Shown: one piece after another, positions 38,594 to 47,498 of the stretch
Layout of the letters: each line of letters begins with the position of its first letter
Position numbering within the stretch: position 1 is the first letter of the stretch
From: Candidatus Babeliales bacterium
Lineage (GTDB): Bacteria; Babelota; Babeliae; Babelales; JANWKD01
Assembly (NCBI GenBank): GCA_963762115.1
Contig: CAVXJH010000006.1
Location: 448,001 to 512,000 of the forward strand
Direction: 5' to 3'
DNA: 64,000 bases
Notes under the pieces: generated by a model
Seen by the model: only the letters and a program-made list of their open reading frames with translations
Database searches by the model: none
What the model was told of the DNA's origin: nothing
Position numbers and translations under genes: made by a program

Positions 38594-39493
38594 TTAATTT
38601 CCCCTTTTGTCGCCAGAATTGTCATATCTTTCTAGTAATTTAATAACTTTTGTAATAAAATTTTGAAAATTTGATGGTGGTTCGTCTAATTCTCGAATTA
38701 TTTTATGGGTGTAATGCAAAGGGCCAGAGGGAATAAATTTTGCATTTCCACAATTAAAATGATCATAGGCAGGACAGAAACAAACTGGCAAGGGGATACC
38801 TTTATTGATGATAGCTCCCTTTTTTAGTAAAAATTTTAATCTTGATAGTCTTTTCTTAAAATCTTTATTTCTTTCAATAAGAGATTCGATGATATTATTT
38901 GGTAATGATATTTTTTTGCTCAATAAAAAAGATACAGGTTCAGTTGAATCGAGATATTCACAAGCATTTTTCATGAGTTGTTCAGAAGATACAATGTCGG
39001 TATATTCTATGTTTGGGCCCCAAAAAGATCTTTTTGCCGAACTTCCTTCTACTATTTTTTTGTATTCTTGATCAAAAAACTTTAAAACGGTTTTATCTTT
39101 TTCATTGAGGTATTCATGCATAAGCATAGCATGTACTATCGTGGCTTTTTCATACAATTTTAATGTTTCATCTTTATTGTTTTTAAGATTGTTGGTTGCG
39201 ATATAGAGTTGTAGTTCTAGTAAATCATGTGCAGGAAATTGTTGAATGGTTTTTGATAGAGAATATATGTCTTGGCATGAAATATGTATTTTAAAAAGTT
39301 CTAATGAAAGTTCACTTGGCAATACAACATTTTCTAATTTTTCCATTGATTCGCTGTTTTTATTTTTTGAAAAACTTTTTATACATAATTCTGTTAAGCG
39401 AAGAGGTTGTTTTAATTCATTCATCGGATAACAATTAAAATTATGGGATATCCCAAAAAGCAAAAGAAAATAAAGATGATTATTTTTTAACAT
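38594..39493 (-). CDS. secreted hypothetical protein with degenerate ankyrin-like segments
   Basis: Signal peptide ending CYP|M; FLLKKGAIIN and GPLHY...VIKLLE resemble ankyrin consensus fragments. Confidence 0.55.
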   Translation of the reverse strand: MLKNNHLYFLLLFGISHNFNCYPMNELKQPLRLTELCIKSFSKNKNSESMEKLENVVLPSELSLELFKIHISCQDIYSLSKTIQQFPAHDLLELQLYIATNNLKNNKDETLKLYEKATIVHAMLMHEYLNEKDKTVLKFFDQEYKKIVEGSSAKRSFWGPNIEYTDIVSSEQLMKNACEYLDSTEPVSFLLSKKISLPNNIIESLIERNKDFKKRLSRLKFLLKKGAIINKGIPLPVCFCPAYDHFNCGNAKFIPSGPLHYTHKIIRELDEPPSNFQNFITKVIKLLERYDNSGDKRGN

Positions 39494-39505
39494 AGTTATA
39501 CTTTC

Positions 39506-40678
39506 TTATTTTGAAATAGTTAGTTTTTTTAAAATTTTATTAAGAATAATGATTAATCCTCCATCGCTCATGACATTTGCTGCTGTTCCGAAACTATCCT
39601 GCAATAAATATAGTGTGTGGATGATTCCCTCCATAGCAGGATCAAATCCTAAAATAGAACGTAAGAGGGGTAATATTACAATAATACCTCCTCCTGGGAC
39701 TCCAGAAATGGCAAACATGGCCATGCAAAAATAAAAGATAAACCAAGAAAATGAGAGTAGCGATGGCAAAGATCCTGTGAAAATTAACATAGTCATTAAA
39801 GCAAACATGGGCACCGTGATAGCATCGCCCGTAAGATGAAAATTGGCCATAATTGGCACTGAAAGATCAACTAATGCATTATCATTAACATTTTTTTTAG
39901 TAACATTTAAGGTAACTGGTATAGAGGCAACACTTGACATAGTGCTAAAGGCAGTGAAGTAACTTGGTAAAGCATTTTTGAGTGCATGAAAACATTTGTT
40001 ATACGAAAAACCTGAACCAATAAAATAGAGCAAGGTTATATATAAAAATTGTAGCAATAGTATGATAACAAAAATTTTACCATATTGAGTAAAGAGGGCA
40101 GCAAATGATCCTTCATAGTGGAGTTGCAGCATAAACCCTACAACATACAGAGGGACACAGGGGATAAATATTTTTACAAGAAATTGCTCTAATAGTCTCT
40201 TGCAATAGTTAATTGATTTTTCAACGGTGCTATTGTGTAGGTAAGAAAAAAAACAACCGGTCACGAGCGCTGCGAGCATTGCATTTTGCGCGCAAAAGGG
40301 TAACGGTATGCTTAATGAAAAATATGGTTGTAATATTTTTGTGGTAGTTTCAAAATTTTGTATGGGTTCTTGGTGAAGAAACCCTAAAACTCCATTACCA
40401 ATAAGTGTGGCAAGAAAGCTTGCAAAAAGATTAGAGAGTACGATAGCTAATACTATAATGCTTAACACGAATGGAACGCTTTTTCTTTTGAAAGAAAAAA
40501 TGGCCGCAACGATAAAAATGAAAACCATAAAAGGAACAAGGGCTGCCAATAATTCTTTGAAAAGCAAACTAAAGGTATAAAAAGCTCGTATGCAAAATAA
40601 TGGTAGAATATTGCCAAAAATGATAATGCCACATGCAATTAATAATAATTGTACAGGCAAAGAAACTTTACTGTTCAT
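39506..40678 (-). CDS. dicarboxylate/amino acid:cation symporter (DAACS/SDF, SstT-like)
   Basis: AFSTMSSVASIPVT, NFHLTGD, ISGVPGGG, DSFGTAANVMSD motifs. Confidence 0.9.
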   Translation of the reverse strand: MNSKVSLPVQLLLIACGIIIFGNILPLFCIRAFYTFSLLFKELLAALVPFMVFIFIVAAIFSFKRKSVPFVLSIIVLAIVLSNLFASFLATLIGNGVLGFLHQEPIQNFETTTKILQPYFSLSIPLPFCAQNAMLAALVTGCFFSYLHNSTVEKSINYCKRLLEQFLVKIFIPCVPLYVVGFMLQLHYEGSFAALFTQYGKIFVIILLLQFLYITLLYFIGSGFSYNKCFHALKNALPSYFTAFSTMSSVASIPVTLNVTKKNVNDNALVDLSVPIMANFHLTGDAITVPMFALMTMLIFTGSLPSLLSFSWFIFYFCMAMFAISGVPGGGIIVILPLLRSILGFDPAMEGIIHTLYLLQDSFGTAANVMSDGGLIIILNKILKKLTISK

Positions 40679-40820
40679 AAAGATCTTTCTTTATTTAAAA
40701 TATGTATAACAAATCTTATCAGCAACAAAATTATTTGATTAAAGGTAATAATCTTCTCAAGTTGTTGATGAATGAACTTAGTATTAAAAAAATGATTGTG
40801 GGGAAAATATATATACTGCC

Positions 40821-40961
40821 TTAGGCAGTTGTAGTTGTAGTTTTTGATGTTGCTTTAGTTGTTAAAGCAAAGAATGCAGAAAAAATAGAAGTATTGATTA
40901 CTTCTTGATTGCGAAAAATCGGTAGAGAGAATTGGGCGTTATCTAGTTTAAAGCAACGCAT
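40821..40961 (-). CDS. Thr-rich leader peptide (46 aa, not in ORF track)
   Basis: AAGGAG SD then ATG: MRCFKLDNAQFSLPIFRNQEVINTSIFSAFFALTTKATSKTTTTTA*; lies between a promoter and the symporter. Confidence 0.7.
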   Translation of the reverse strand: MRCFKLDNAQFSLPIFRNQEVINTSIFSAFFALTTKATSKTTTTTA

Positions 40962-41003
40962 TGCAAACTCCTTATGTTTTGCAAAAAAAATACATTTATT
41001 AAA

Positions 41004-41032
41004 ATTATATTGTTTCTACAAAAATAAGTCAA
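41004..41032 (-). promoter_or_regulatory. sigma70 promoter for leader peptide/symporter
   Basis: Minus strand TTGACT (41032-41027), 17 nt, TATAAT (41009-41004). Confidence 0.8.
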
Positions 41033-41064
41033 TTCTTTTTTGTTATATTTCTAAATGGAAATTA

Positions 41065-42894
41065 TTAAAGATCTGTATCCTGTTGATGTTCTTGTGCTTG
41101 TTTTTCCCATAGGCGAGCATAAAGAGCATTATTTTTGAGAAGTTCCCTGTGTGAGCCTTGCTCAACAATGGAACCATGTTCAAGGACAATGATGCTATCG
41201 GCATGGGTGACGGTTGAAAGACGATGAGCAATAATGAGCGTTGTTGATCCAGATGATATTTCTTCAAGATTTTTCTGTATTTCTTGTTCGGTTCTTGTAT
41301 CAAGAGCAGAAGTTGCTTCATCAAAAATATAAATTACGGGGTGATGAAGGAGGACCCGTGCAATTGCTACACGTTGTTTTTCACCGCCTGATAATTTTAA
41401 TCCACGTTCGCCAACCATGGTATTGAGGCCATCAGGTAATTTTTTAATAAAATTTTCTAAATGAGACAAACGAACTGCTTTTTCAACTTCTTCTTTTGTG
41501 GCAGATGGTTTGCCATAGGCAATGTTATAATATAATGAATTATTGAAAAGTACCGTATCTTGAGGAACGATACCCATAATTTTTTGGAGAGCTTCTTGTT
41601 TGATTGCACGAATATCATAATCATTAATGAGAATGCTTCCTTGGGTAATATCGTAAAATCTGAATAATAAGCGCGCAATGGTTGATTTTCCTGAACCAGT
41701 TGGTCCAACAATGGCAACGGTGTGTCCAGCGGGGACAACAAATGAGACATCTTTTAGGATAGGTCTTCTGGAATCATACCCAAAAAATACATGATTAAAG
41801 GTGATGGTGGCAGTGTCAATTTTTGGATTTAATGCGTTGGGTGCATCAGTGATTTCTGGTTTTAATTGTAATAAATTAAAAACCGCTTCCATATCAGTCA
41901 AGCCTTTACGAATTTTTCGCAATACGTAACCAAACCAACTTAAAGGGGTTACAAATTGAAGAAGGTAGCCATTTACTAAAATAAAATCACTCACATTCAT
42001 AGTGCCTTTAATGACATTGTTCCCAGTCATCCAGGTTAATGTTATTAACCCTATTCCTAGAACCACTCCTTGGCCTAGATGCACTAATTCTGTGGTAACG
42101 TGATATGCCGTTGTTGTATCTTCGCGTTCTTTAAGAATGCGATTTGTTTGATCATATTCAAATCGTTGATTGCAAAAATATTTGACTGTTTCAAAGTTGA
42201 GTAAACTATCAACAACGCGAGCTCCGGCATTGAGATTCTTCTCATTAGAAATTCTTTGTGCATTTGTTGACCATTCCATGCTAATGGAACTGAAAATTAT
42301 ATAACTGACTAAAATTGAAAAAAGAGTTAGGCCATACATTGCACCATATAAATACCATAAAATGGTGACTGCTACCAAAATTTCAGTAACAGTAGGAATG
42401 ATTGAAAGAAAAATACCTGAAAAAATATCAGGAAATCCATCTTGAGCTTTTTCAATGGCACTCGTAATTGCGCCAGTTTTTCGCTCTAGATGAAATCGTA
42501 ATGATAATACATGAAAATGATTAAATAATTTTAAACTGAGCAATCTAATGCCATGTTCCATAACCCGAAACATTACTAATTCTCTCATTTGCACCGTTAT
42601 CTGACTAAGCATCCATAAAACACCGTATGCTAAAAGAAAAAATTGGGTGACATACATTGAGTCTTTTGGTGTTTCAAAAAGAGAAATTAATTTTTTTAAA
42701 ACCAAAGGAATGCTTAAATTAAGTGCTATGCTTATAAAAATAAACAGAATAGAAATACCAATGCGCATGCGTAGGCGCCAATCTGAAATCCACAAATAAG
42801 GCAGCAATTGAAAAATAACTTTGTAGGGGCTCACTTTTTTTTTGTGATGAGCAGCTGAAGGCGCGGCGATATCCTTCTCATCTATTTTTTTCAT
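41065..42894 (-). CDS. ABC exporter, ATM1/ABCB7 (HMT) type, fused permease-ATPase
   Basis: LRFHLERKTG, DSLLNFETVKYF, GPTGSGKST, VGERGLKLSGGEKQR, DEATSALD. Confidence 0.92.
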   Translation of the reverse strand: MKKIDEKDIAAPSAAHHKKKVSPYKVIFQLLPYLWISDWRLRMRIGISILFIFISIALNLSIPLVLKKLISLFETPKDSMYVTQFFLLAYGVLWMLSQITVQMRELVMFRVMEHGIRLLSLKLFNHFHVLSLRFHLERKTGAITSAIEKAQDGFPDIFSGIFLSIIPTVTEILVAVTILWYLYGAMYGLTLFSILVSYIIFSSISMEWSTNAQRISNEKNLNAGARVVDSLLNFETVKYFCNQRFEYDQTNRILKEREDTTTAYHVTTELVHLGQGVVLGIGLITLTWMTGNNVIKGTMNVSDFILVNGYLLQFVTPLSWFGYVLRKIRKGLTDMEAVFNLLQLKPEITDAPNALNPKIDTATITFNHVFFGYDSRRPILKDVSFVVPAGHTVAIVGPTGSGKSTIARLLFRFYDITQGSILINDYDIRAIKQEALQKIMGIVPQDTVLFNNSLYYNIAYGKPSATKEEVEKAVRLSHLENFIKKLPDGLNTMVGERGLKLSGGEKQRVAIARVLLHHPVIYIFDEATSALDTRTEQEIQKNLEEISSGSTTLIIAHRLSTVTHADSIIVLEHGSIVEQGSHRELLKNNALYARLWEKQAQEHQQDTDL

Positions 42895-43984: not shown

Positions 43985-45751
43985 CTAAAGATTATTTTCT
44001 TTTTTCTTTCTTTTTAAGCGAGAGCGTATAGGCTGTGGTAAGGCGGTAAAGAGCGCTTTGGTTTGTTCTGACGCATTAATATATTGTTCAATTTTTAATT
44101 CTCTATTGTTTTCTGTAATGCAGACGCAGCCATGAAGAAATGCAATGTGTTGTGCAGAAAGGTTGTGTAGGCTTTTTTTTAGATTTTCATTAATAATAGT
44201 ATGTTCTATGAAGCCTTGTTTATGGCGGGCTGCTAATACTTTGCTGTCCAGGGAAAATGTGACTGGAAATGAACAACCAGGTAAGATTTTTATAAGTTTT
44301 CCAGATTGAGAGTTAAGTATTATAATTTTATTTTTTCGTGTTGATTCTAGGGTTAACATTGAGCCATCGGGTGATATAAGCAAATGATCAATAGAGCACT
44401 TTTTTATGGGTATGATTTTATAGAGCTTTCGTTTTTTTATGTTCCAAAAACAAAGTTCATGAAGCATTTTTTTCGTTTTATTACTTTTTCTTTTTGAAAG
44501 GGAATAGAGTCTTTTTTTATCAGGAGATAAACATAAACTGGTAATCTCTCGCCGTTTAGTATGTTCTGAAGTAAAGAAATATTTTTTTACTTTGTCTTTA
44601 GTAACATTATATGTATGTATTCCTTTTCCTTGAAGAGCGAGATAAAATATTTTATTGTCTTGATCATAGGCAAATGCATGCAATTTAGTAGTGAATAATG
44701 GCATTTGTCCGTGTATAAAGGTGATTTGCTTTTTTTCATCATCATGGAGTGAATACATTTTTATATCGTTTGTCCCTATTAAAAAAAGTAAATTTTCTGA
44801 AGGTGCGTATCTGATGGATGATGTGGAAGAATGTTTTGTTTGTGTTGATCCTAAGAGAGCACTTGTCTCTAAATCGTATGCGTGTAATGATTGATTTGCA
44901 AAAAGACAAAATAATCTTTTTGTTGTTGGGCACATCCAAGAGCTATATAAATAATGATGCGTGCCAACGGGTATATCTCTTATAGCTTTATCATGCCAAA
45001 ATTTGATTGTGGAGCTGTTTGTAGGTGATTTAAATAATAAGTTATCTTGACCTGACCAATAATACCAATAATGATCGTTTTTTTCTTCCATTCTATGAAG
45101 AGTGCATTTTTGATCGAGTGTTTTCAGGAAAGATTCTATTTTAGGCGAATAAGCTATAAGTTTATTACCCAAATAGACTGAGAGATGTTGTGTATTGCAA
45201 GTATCAAGTAATGCCAATGCAGATATGATTTTATTTTTTTGTACAAGCCGTATTGTTTTTTCTGCTATATGTTCTAAACATGTTTCAAAAAGTAAGGGGA
45301 ATGCAAGAAAATCGGCTGTTTGTAATAATTCGGAAAACGTGTATGTAGATCGTTTGCTTTCTTTAAAAAATTCTTTTAGCTGACATTTTTGATGATCTTC
45401 GTTTTGTTCATTTTTTGTTATGGCTAATAATAAAGCTATTTTTTCAGCTGTTTTGAATTGTTTTTTTGAAATGTGTGATGTCGATAGACTGAGAGCAGAA
45501 TCTTGATCAAAGCTATATTGATTATGTAAAGTGCCTATATATTGAAGTTGCGGGAGATTCCATTGTGATGAATATATAATTTCTTCCTGATCATTTTCGA
45601 GATTTACCGTAATTGGCAAAATATTGTTTGCATCGCTAGAATCATCATGAATAAAATTTAATGTTTTTTGAACTGATTCCATTGCATGAGAAGATCGTGT
45701 TAATAAAAATAAGAAGAAGGCATAAAAAAGATGTCTTTTTGTTCGAATCAT
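43985..45751 (-). CDS. secreted Skp1/BTB-like + WD40 beta-propeller protein (array copy 4)
   Basis: SHA|ME signal; LLQTADFLAFPLLFETC; WD-like ITSLCLSPD...FWNI, ISPDGSML, FSLDSKVLA. Confidence 0.72.
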   Translation of the reverse strand: MIRTKRHLFYAFFLFLLTRSSHAMESVQKTLNFIHDDSSDANNILPITVNLENDQEEIIYSSQWNLPQLQYIGTLHNQYSFDQDSALSLSTSHISKKQFKTAEKIALLLAITKNEQNEDHQKCQLKEFFKESKRSTYTFSELLQTADFLAFPLLFETCLEHIAEKTIRLVQKNKIISALALLDTCNTQHLSVYLGNKLIAYSPKIESFLKTLDQKCTLHRMEEKNDHYWYYWSGQDNLLFKSPTNSSTIKFWHDKAIRDIPVGTHHYLYSSWMCPTTKRLFCLFANQSLHAYDLETSALLGSTQTKHSSTSSIRYAPSENLLFLIGTNDIKMYSLHDDEKKQITFIHGQMPLFTTKLHAFAYDQDNKIFYLALQGKGIHTYNVTKDKVKKYFFTSEHTKRREITSLCLSPDKKRLYSLSKRKSNKTKKMLHELCFWNIKKRKLYKIIPIKKCSIDHLLISPDGSMLTLESTRKNKIIILNSQSGKLIKILPGCSFPVTFSLDSKVLAARHKQGFIEHTIINENLKKSLHNLSAQHIAFLHGCVCITENNRELKIEQYINASEQTKALFTALPQPIRSRLKRKKKENNL

Positions 45752-45752
45752 T

Positions 45753-47498
45753 TTAATGTTGCCTATTTTTACCTATTAAATATGATCGTATCGATGCGGG
45801 CAATTCATCAAATAATGTACGAGTTTTTTCCGATATATTAATACATTTTTTAAATATATCACCATTTTTGTTTTCTAATATGCGAGCACAAGCATACACT
45901 AATGCAAGGTGAGGTGCTGGAAAATTATGTAAATGCTTTTTAAGACTTTCATCAGTTAGAACATGTTCTATAACGCCCTTTGCGCATCGTGTAGCTAAGG
46001 TTTTGCCATCTTGAGAAAAGGCAACAGGGTAAAAGCCTTGTTTAAATATTTTTATCATATGGCCAGATTGAGCATCAAATAAAGTAACCGGTTTTTTTTG
46101 GTCACATGCTAAAGAGAGCAATGTTCCATCAGGTGATAGAAGTAATTGATACGTATGGTTAGGTTGATAATTTTTTAAAGAAATTACTTTGGTTGGTGTA
46201 CCTTTTTCTATATTCCAAAAACGAAGTACTCCAACAGTGCATGAGTCGTTGTTATTTTTTTTTGAAAGTGAGAAAAGCGTTTTCTTGTCTTTTGATAAGC
46301 ATAAAGCCGTAAAATTGATGCTTTTGCATGAAAAGAATTGTTTTAAAGCACCATTTTCAATAGTGTATTGAAGAATTCCATTGTCTTTAAGCGCGAGATA
46401 AAAGATGAGATTATCTTCATCAAAGGCAAAACCATTGATCTCGTTAGTTGTTGTTAATGCATAGTGGTTTGAATGGATTAGTTTGCCTTCGTTAAGATGA
46501 TAACTGTAGATCACCTTGTTCTGTATAAAACATAAAATATTTTTTGATGGAGAATAGGAGAGTGATTTTGTTCCCGGTGTTGCATTTTTGCCAGCCAAAA
46601 ACGTTCCAGTTTTTAGGTCATAAAGTTGAATGGCGCCCTCAAATAAACAAAATAATTTATTTGACATAGGGCAAATATAAGACGCTTTCAGTGGAGTCCT
46701 GCTTACGGTGGAAATGGTATGCATGGTATGATCATGCCAAAAACTTATGTTTTCATGATCGAGTGATCTCAATACTAAAGAATTTGATCTATAGGGAAGA
46801 AGAAAAGAGTTTTCTCTTGGATGAAGTACCTGTTCCTGGGTTAAAGCAATAAGTAGACGACGGATTTCTGGGGAGCAATGTAATATTTGATTTCCAAGGT
46901 ATGTTAAAACATGATGATTGTCTATGTTTTCAAGTAATAAAAGTGCTTTTTGAAGCTTATTTTTTTTTATAAGATTTTTTATAGTTTGGGTTATTCTTTC
47001 TAAGCACAATTCAAAAAGCAATGGACAATCAAGAAAATCGCTGCTCTTTAAAAGATCTACAAAAATATTTATTTGTTTATTTGTTTTTTGAAGACATTCT
47101 TTTAATTGATTCTTTTGTTCTTCGCTTTGTTTTTCTTTATTTTCTTGTTCTAAACTTGCCAAGAGCATTGTTACTTTTTCAATTGTTTTTAACTGTTTTT
47201 TTGAAATGTGTGATTCTTGCAGACTCAAAGGAGCGTCAGGTTCAAACTCATATTGACTGCGCAGGTTGCCGACATAACCAAGTTGTGAGAGATTCCATTG
47301 CGATGAATAGACAATTTCCTGACGATTATTTTCGAGATTTATGGTAATGGGAATGGCTGTATCATCATGCACCAGAGCAGGCATTTTTCGATTGGATTTT
47401 TTTGTTAATTCCATTGCATGAGAATTTTGTAGTGCTAAAAATAAGAAGAGGGTAGAAAAAAGATACATTTTTGTTGTAATCATATTAATGTTTTTCAT
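45753..47498 (-). CDS. secreted Skp1/BTB-like + WD40 protein (array copy 3)
   Basis: SHA|ME; LLKSSDFLDCPLLFELC; LCLSKD...FWNI, LSPDGTLL, FSQDGKTLA. Confidence 0.72.
   Translation of the reverse strand: MKNINMITTKMYLFSTLFLFLALQNSHAMELTKKSNRKMPALVHDDTAIPITINLENNRQEIVYSSQWNLSQLGYVGNLRSQYEFEPDAPLSLQESHISKKQLKTIEKVTMLLASLEQENKEKQSEEQKNQLKECLQKTNKQINIFVDLLKSSDFLDCPLLFELCLERITQTIKNLIKKNKLQKALLLLENIDNHHVLTYLGNQILHCSPEIRRLLIALTQEQVLHPRENSFLLPYRSNSLVLRSLDHENISFWHDHTMHTISTVSRTPLKASYICPMSNKLFCLFEGAIQLYDLKTGTFLAGKNATPGTKSLSYSPSKNILCFIQNKVIYSYHLNEGKLIHSNHYALTTTNEINGFAFDEDNLIFYLALKDNGILQYTIENGALKQFFSCKSINFTALCLSKDKKTLFSLSKKNNNDSCTVGVLRFWNIEKGTPTKVISLKNYQPNHTYQLLLSPDGTLLSLACDQKKPVTLFDAQSGHMIKIFKQGFYPVAFSQDGKTLATRCAKGVIEHVLTDESLKKHLHNFPAPHLALVYACARILENKNGDIFKKCINISEKTRTLFDELPASIRSYLIGKNRQH

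Follow-up and report, generated by a model that had tools for sequence, protein, structure and literature searches.

A small open reading frame (ORF) that ends in a run of threonine codons and carries a hairpin at its stop codon precedes an amino-acid importer gene in Candidatus Babeliales bacterium, and the same arrangement recurs before related importers and before thrS genes. We conclude that this threonine leader element is real and conserved, and that it is unannotated in Rfam. Because codon-run leaders are well established as sensors and because of the link to thrS, we are highly confident that the leader senses charged tRNA-Thr. With moderate confidence we propose that it acts by Rho-dependent termination, which would hold the importer off until threonine is scarce. 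A threonine-sensing attenuator had been put forward for this locus before, and its recurrence among homologs together with the thrS link supports that reading. The window analyzed here is a stretch of 64,000 nucleotides; the genome comprises 1.53 Mb at 34% GC, is 95% complete and belongs to the Babeliales, which we take to be an order of protist parasites. The locus has the following parts (window coordinates).

41065..42894, minus strand: ABC exporter, the upstream neighbour, ending 33 nt before the promoter-like site (context)
41004..41032, minus strand: predicted sigma-70-type promoter-like site TTGACT-N17-TATAAT, 11 of 12 consensus bases
40968..40973, minus strand: Shine-Dalgarno sequence (SD) AAGGAG of the leader ORF, 6 nt upstream of its ATG, read from the sequence
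40821..40961, minus strand: leader ORF of 46 codons, without a Pfam match
40850..40905, minus strand: two inverted repeats within the ORF (40887-40905 and 40850-40870), within chance
40824..40862, minus strand: sensor codon run, the last 13 codons with 8 Thr and 1 Ser; the RNA is C-rich and G-poor
40815..40829, minus strand: conserved 6-bp hairpin; the last Thr and Ala codons form the 5' arm and the loop holds the stop codon
40765..40814, minus strand: unstructured, U-rich stretch with more C than G, by composition a candidate Rho loading site
40679..40764, minus strand: distal spacer with local hairpins, one covering the ribosome-binding site of the transporter
39506..40678, minus strand: DAACS/SDF amino-acid symporter gene, 390 aa, PF00375 at 153 bits

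The promoter, SD, 46-codon ORF, three inverted repeats and 142-nt spacer of the original prediction were all recovered at their predicted minus-strand positions. TTGACT-N17-TATAAT scores highest among 11 promoter-like sites within 39000-42000, and it is the single minus-strand site in the gap 40676-41064. A proximal start site for the transporter had been named as evidence against an attenuator; the scan found no promoter-like site for the importer gene within the 142 nt that separate it from the leader ORF. A low-structure stretch with more C than G adjoins the leader ORF: the first two 30-nt blocks of the spacer contain 7 C to 3 G and 6 C to 1 G, and its first 40 nt have an unpaired probability of 0.85, the spacer being open for the first 40-50 nt. 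Elsewhere in the window (43985-47498, minus strand) lie two tandem 580-aa ORFs that look paralogous, have signal-like starts and are typical of the expanded families of this lineage.

All nine threonine codons of the leader ORF are ACA or ACT, which has a chance of 0.02 at genome codon use, and eight threonines in 13 codons correspond to a binomial P of about 2e-8 per site at the intergenic ACN frequency. Applied to the whole genome, a custom ORF caller listed 2,417 distinct small ORFs that lie between genes and no more than 400 nt from one; six of these have at least five threonines in 12 codons, and the leader ORF is the sole one with eight. The structures within the leader fared unequally. 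Three hairpins had been described, of which the one at the stop codon beats chance, just 8 of 500 synonymous recodings being equally stable, and covaries among homologs, whereas 82 of 500 recodings match the stability of the ORF body including the two hairpins further upstream (40887-40905 and 40850-40870). These two are not shared by the homologs and were set aside as no better than chance. Rfam returned no leader or riboswitch family, either at the gathering score for the window and 14 loci or at an E-value of 5 for eight loci, in agreement with the earlier view of the element as unannotated.

For the comparison across importers we assembled 181 distinct DAACS genes, 174 of them with at least 300 nt of upstream sequence; the alphaproteobacterial sample comprises 60 loci and 60 further regions, from 135 and 51 listed matches. 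The full layout consists of a Thr/Ser run, a GC hairpin that begins at the last Thr/Ser codon and overlaps the stop, and a G-poor spacer. It was found upstream of 5 of the 45 Babeliales homologs (L001, L014, L040, L045 and L046) and 42 of the 129 others, mostly alphaproteobacterial ones; as the homologs are related these counts exaggerate the independent evidence, and the set was in part adjusted by eye. Starting from 48 leaders flagged by a Thr/Ser rule, we dropped five (L004, L029, the second gene of L121, L180 and L186) and added four (L113, L116, L119 and L123). The conserved Thr-run ORF expected among orthologs does recur in two distant groups, but it is missing before 40 of the 45 Babeliales genes.

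Selection by structure leads to the same amino acid. ORFs chosen purely by a stop hairpin and a following stretch with more C than G (38 in 36 regions) contain 26% threonine in their last 12 codons compared with 4.8% in 1,040 other ORF ends, a 5.4-fold enrichment, while serine reaches 13% and is enriched 1.6-fold. When one rule of at least four copies was applied to the 174 upstream regions, threonine was found 30 times, leucine 18 times, serine 15 times and every other amino acid at most four times. Inspection of the other DAACS clades revealed no alternative amino-acid leader among the output listed. In a quick tree the leader carriers occur in both deep branches, interspersed with leader-less clades, and the Babeliales copies L045 and L046 cluster with alphaproteobacterial ones; these being quick trees only, we claim no donor, transfer direction or order of events.

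Several of these loci show peculiarities of their own. In the alphaproteobacterial L094 (425-1264, plus strand) a type I methionyl aminopeptidase ORF of 279 aa ends in the Thr run and stem; at L095, whose importer is near-identical, the leader stands alone with 15 codons, and the join in L094 may be a real fusion or a mis-assembly. The spacer of one Thr leader contains a long palindromic element (L045:1198-1370) that lengthens it to 344 nt; the element matches Wolbachia sRNA 46 weakly, below the gathering score, and L094 contains a similar-looking insert. The importer behind the Thr leader of L014/L291 (genome G057) is split over two reading frames at a stretch of N, probably an assembly gap. 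In G007 (L007) a GC-richer, hairpin-ended non-coding leader without a Thr ORF lies about 300 nt before the start of the DAACS ortholog. Rfam offered no family for it at the gathering score and no fitting one at an E-value of 5, and it could be an undescribed RNA element.

The stem statistics rest on 42 elements, 15 of 57 having been excluded as without a stem under the pattern of the script. The stem is GC-rich and 5-7 bp long, its 5' arm being made of the last Thr/Ser codon and a following Ala or Gly codon. Of the 42 elements, 21 plus 2 have the stop in the loop and 16 plus 3 have it at the end of the 3' arm; the stem of the window has a U-A pair where 35 of the 42 show C-G. Covariation of a hairpin before homologous DAACS genes had been proposed as a check, and this stem does covary: in a model-fitted alignment, which favours the structure and contains related sequences, 81.6% of cells are paired and 28 cells are changed on both sides, with 0 of 500 shuffles as high. 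An alignment by MAFFT only, in which differing loop lengths fall out of register, has 73.8% of cells paired and 1-2 of 500 shuffles as high. A covariance model was built from 30 elements and searched against 439 kb from 100 sources; at E below 1 it returned 43 matches, 14 of them outside the training set, and all 43 fall at loci or places where the leader was or could be seen.

Around the stem G is scarce, with 9% in the 30 nt ahead of it and, in the 20 nt past it, 4% next to 21% C and 47% U; the excess of C over G also served to select many of the homologs and is therefore no independent test there. The spacer measures 53-145 nt in 41 of the 42 elements. In none of the 42 does UUU follow the stem directly, and 35 have at most four U in 8 nt, which agrees with the original prediction that a strong U-tailed terminator is lacking. 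Two pairings were tried and rejected: as an antiterminator, the 3' arm, once freed, shows no more pairing with the spacer than with shuffled versions of it (1 of 41 above z 2), and an anti-SD inside the spacer is equally unsupported (0 of 41 above z 2; p 0.97). With neither a U-tract nor an antiterminator, the element fails to qualify for the classical terminator/antiterminator family; judged by its sequence, it appears to work like a codon-run attenuator outside that family.

The thrS genes provide a second link to threonine. A model trained exclusively on DAACS elements matched in 6 of 151 genomes of the Babeliales order, among them at the window locus, at L045 and in the thrS upstream regions of G033 and G165. 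The two weaker matches, in G046 and G023 (E 0.02-0.04), were discarded as a plain terminator-like stem and a frame without a fitting downstream gene. The full layout stands before 10 of 73 thrS genes by eye (L231, L232, L265, L267, L269, L272, L273, L277, L286 and L305), with two more doubtful; a loose rule flagged 22, and L286, just below this rule, was counted by eye. The 73 regions are the 30 top-scoring ones, 40 picked ones biased to families f1, f12, f17 and f19, that of the window genome itself and two model matches, and most thrS genes examined are without the element. The exact 15-nt stem of the window precedes thrS in G001, of the same genus, and in G003, of the same family. In G057 the leader, the DAACS gene and thrS follow one another in one run, as they do in G257 with one gene between importer and thrS. 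Upstream of the window genome's own thrS we found no Thr leader.

The organization of the thrS region was compared with L265 and L291 included. In both G001 and G057, a divergent conserved gene and thrS flank the leader; in G057 the importer is also found between them. In the window genome (G000:C3:351488-360758) a gene of 1,924 aa occupies that place and thrS is leader-less, while leader and importer are found elsewhere. The comparison suggests that leader and importer moved as a unit. As to the need for threonine, thrC did not exceed its cut-off and homoserine dehydrogenase was not found in the 95%-complete window genome, so that the organism is likely a threonine auxotroph, as had been anticipated; in five of five other carriers thrC and homoserine dehydrogenase were likewise not found.

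The importer itself lies above the gathering score of PF00375 and resembles the GltPh, EAAT and ASCT structures. It had been described as SstT-like, an identity that has to be given up: against the SstT model NF010151 it reaches 50 bits where the cut-off is 308, which makes it a member of a separate DAACS subfamily and not SstT proper. What it has in common with SstT is the DAACS/SDF family and a predicted Thr/Ser substrate; it differs in that its subfamily is a separate one, present in Babeliales and two alphaproteobacterial orders. An arginine in TM8 is tied to acidic substrates in the DAACS family. Aligned with EAAT1, the importer has Gly at the position of this arginine, which argues against an acidic substrate, and we predict that it carries threonine and possibly serine. 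Among named records, 17 of the 31 closest matches are Babeliales or Dependentiae. A homolog is present in 43 of 261 genomes of the Babeliales order, and by profile search the subfamily occurs in two alphaproteobacterial orders, in 61 of 62 genomes of one and 21 of 23 of the other; one of these orders includes a Holosporales record. A metagenome search returned one locus, without upstream DNA.

In the mechanism that we favour, the leader ORF would be translated from its own SD. When Thr-tRNA is ample, the ribosome would traverse the run, stop within the hairpin and depart, and the exposed C-rich, G-poor Thr codons would form a Rho loading track together with the refolded hairpin and the spacer with its excess of C over G. 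Rho would then end transcription ahead of the importer gene or early within it. When Thr-tRNA is scarce, the ribosome would stall on the run and cover the upstream half of the track and the 5' arm; polymerase would then reach the importer gene, where translation would shield the mRNA. Serine codons would be a weaker second input. On sequence grounds, Rho appears to fit the base composition before and after the stem, the lengths of the spacers and the open start of the window spacer. Set against this, an AT-rich spacer is poor in G for unrelated reasons as well, and any run of Thr codons is bound to be rich in C. The rho gene lies over its cut-off in the window genome and in four of five other carriers; in G319, which carries the element, Rho was not found.

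The same sensor could have a different output. If the codons before the Thr run paired with the ribosome-binding site of the importer, a stalled ribosome would free it, and any effect of Rho would be mere polarity, as in mycobacterial poly-Cys leaders; the accessible text of 10.1101/834739 offers a precedent for such a translational output. Across 36 elements, cognate leader-SD pairing is stronger than that of mismatched loci (-9.8 versus -8.3 kcal/mol, permutation p 5e-5, inflated because kin share sequence), while two control windows gave p 0.29 and 0.97, and in about 12 alphaproteobacterial loci the helices lie approximately 20-30 nt before the stem. With the Thr codons blocked, SD opening becomes cheaper by more than 1 kcal/mol in 9 of 35 elements and costlier in three (Wilcoxon p 0.006), but the shift stays below 1 kcal/mol in the other 23. 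In the window element the duplex is weak (-6.6 kcal/mol, rank 21 of 36) and SD opening costs 5.6-6.1 kcal/mol at every ribosome position. Folding the window leader with and without a stalled ribosome, as the original prediction had proposed, accordingly gave no alternative fold and unchanged SD opening. Translational output also leaves the conservation of the stem and of the G-poor spacer unexplained. Alternatively, the hairpin might be a weak intrinsic terminator, aided by NusA/NusG, whose 5' arm is covered by the stalled ribosome. The 5-7 bp GC-rich stem is followed by an A/U-rich tail with a U fraction of 0.5-0.8 at positions 5-8 past the stem, and a consensus scan calls the stop-codon hairpin of the window terminator-like where 0.0 are expected in shuffles. 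Against this speak the scarcity of U directly after the 42 stems, described above, and a consideration of timing: polymerase would probably clear the tail before any ribosome reaches the in-stem stop, and a ribosome coupled to it and moving fast would block the stem as well, leaving no switch. Leader-SD pairing is significant across the homologs and speaks for a translational output in many of them, but it is not predicted for the window element; we therefore regard Rho-dependent termination as the probable output, translational gating as rather unlikely and intrinsic termination as improbable. Rho and SD gating can coexist through polarity.

Two further explanations dispense with the codon sensor altogether. 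The leader could encode a TnaC-like arrest peptide that responds, inside the ribosome tunnel, to free threonine or some other ligand; an ORF of 46 aa is long, and its stop adjoins a stretch with more C than G as in tnaC, to go by the accessible portion of PMC12360218. Yet the homologous peptides vary from about 15 to 48 aa and share nothing beyond the Thr/Ser run and those residues that the stem dictates, and BLASTP aligns nothing between the window peptide and that of L231, so that an N-terminal likeness of the two was dismissed as apparent only. We consider an arrest peptide very improbable. The idea of a chance small ORF in an AT-rich spacer, or of a decayed and functionless leader, draws on the close relatives G001-G004, the four other genomes of the family, in which this query found no importer copy and which therefore offer no near ortholog of the exact locus. 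It has to face a threonine density unique in the genome, a leader whose promoter, SD and stem are all intact, and the fact that thrS of G001 and G003 is preceded by the identical stem; in our view it is hardly credible.

Similar leaders with other codons occur in the same genome. An SD-led ORF of 49 codons with an Ile-rich end and its stop in a hairpin (G000:C3:24017-24166, minus strand; L058/L306) sits 119 nt before a BrnQ-family carrier; SD-led leaders rich in Met, Ile or Val also stand before BrnQ homologs at L307, L309, L317, L319, L322, L329 and L330, in a scan of 30 loci by a strict rule, 14 of which were scanned again by a looser one. At G000:C3:225316-225459 (plus strand; L050) a 47-codon ORF with eight Ile in 12 codons precedes a 305-aa unknown ORF and ileS, and an Ile-rich leader with a stop hairpin was found before ileS in two of five genomes checked (G001 and G257). 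A 50-codon ORF ending in five Tyr, with its stop in the loop of a 13-bp hairpin (G000:C3:291409-291561, plus strand; L049), precedes two genes of the DIT1/PvcA family, whose enzymes presumably use tyrosine; this leader was not seen before four DIT1/PvcA homolog matches in three other genomes. A Met-rich ORF of 32 codons with the same Ala-stop hairpin (G000:C3:276785-276883, minus strand; L059) precedes a SAM hydroxide adenosyltransferase, a cupin and an EamA carrier. Two cases are uncertain, each before a gene without a Pfam match: an SD-led, Phe-rich small ORF of 50 aa (G000:C3:286174-286326, minus strand) and an SD-led ORF of 27 aa that has a hairpin and a single Trp late in its sequence (G000:C3:278597-278680, plus strand). 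By their codons, each Thr, Ile, Met and Tyr leader of the window genome thus appears to precede a fitting gene. Its Thr, Ile and Met leaders have a common Ala-stop stem, and in G257 the Thr and Ile leaders (L040 and L337) end in identical codons and stem, apparently a genome-specific end module beneath differing sensor codons.

In the classical thrL attenuator of enterobacterial thr operons, a leader with Thr codons reads charged tRNA. The element described here resembles it in the short leader ORF whose Thr-codon run serves as charged-tRNA sensor, but it is without the U-tailed terminator, the conserved antiterminator and an Rfam match; it combines Thr with Ser where thrL combines Thr with Ile, and it stands before genes of import and tRNA charging, not of synthesis. 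The general scheme of leader attenuators is set out in the accessible text of PMC10272879. Leaders before thrS and before importers are already in print. According to the accessible parts of PMC8079986, Streptomyces lividans has thrL before thrS and metL before the MetNIQ importer, and thrL is like our element in its target, a single hairpin and no U-rich tail, its termination mode being left open there, while metL is like it in standing upstream of an amino-acid importer. The S. lividans leaders differ in being leaderless transcripts of Actinobacteria with two Thr codons, whereas the Babeliales element, compared by layout, is SD-led, contains up to 8 Thr, has a stem that covaries and is anchored at the last Thr codon, and targets DAACS genes. 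A His leader before the lysQ permease is cited in an excerpt of PMC4833913.

Attenuators in which a leader ORF gates Rho include tnaC, speFL, cruR, mgtL and corL (PMC12360218, in part), and actinobacterial Cys leaders are predicted to use Rho (PMC1262725, in part). As far as these texts go, they share with our element a leader ORF beside a pyrimidine-rich, G-poor stretch and no intrinsic terminator. They describe tnaC, speFL and cruR as stalling through the peptide, and mgtL and corL as swapping large alternative folds; the element here has one small conserved stem, and a run of hungry codons would provide its input. Mycobacterial poly-Cys leaders and the LEU element (10.1101/834739 and PMC1262725, both in part) are alike in the pairing of leader RNA with the SD, seen in a subset of our homologs. 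In these systems the sensor codons pair with the SD, compared with the codons preceding the run in our case, and weakly so in the window element. In Chlamydia, Trp codons within a full-length protein act as sensor, as an excerpt of PMC7755916 reports. In our literature search, Thr leaders upstream of DAACS genes did not turn up, nor did leader attenuators from Babeliales or Holosporales; earlier listing in attenuator surveys is possible in either case.

A wider reading can be offered tentatively: genome-reduced, host-dependent bacteria of two phyla might share a minimal, portable attenuator made of a hungry-codon run, a stem welded to the stop and a Rho track, without an alternative fold. Babeliales would reuse it genome-wide with Thr, Ile, Met and Tyr codons and it would move between thrS and importers, and in one alphaproteobacterial record it would be grafted onto the end of a methionine aminopeptidase, a housekeeping protein turned leader.

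For a DAACS subfamily that has no name so far, the leader points to a likely substrate, and the same codon reading annotates other carriers, e.g. Ile, Met or Val for BrnQ-like ones. How terminator-less leaders act is left open in the accessible texts of PMC1262725 and PMC8079986, and about 55 natural variants of a 90-nt element make this action testable in Escherichia coli. For the organism itself the implications would go further. Bacteria that depend obligately on a host are generally considered to retain little regulation. If our reading is true, the element would provide them with a protein-free gauge of the host's threonine supply that tunes both uptake and tRNA charging.
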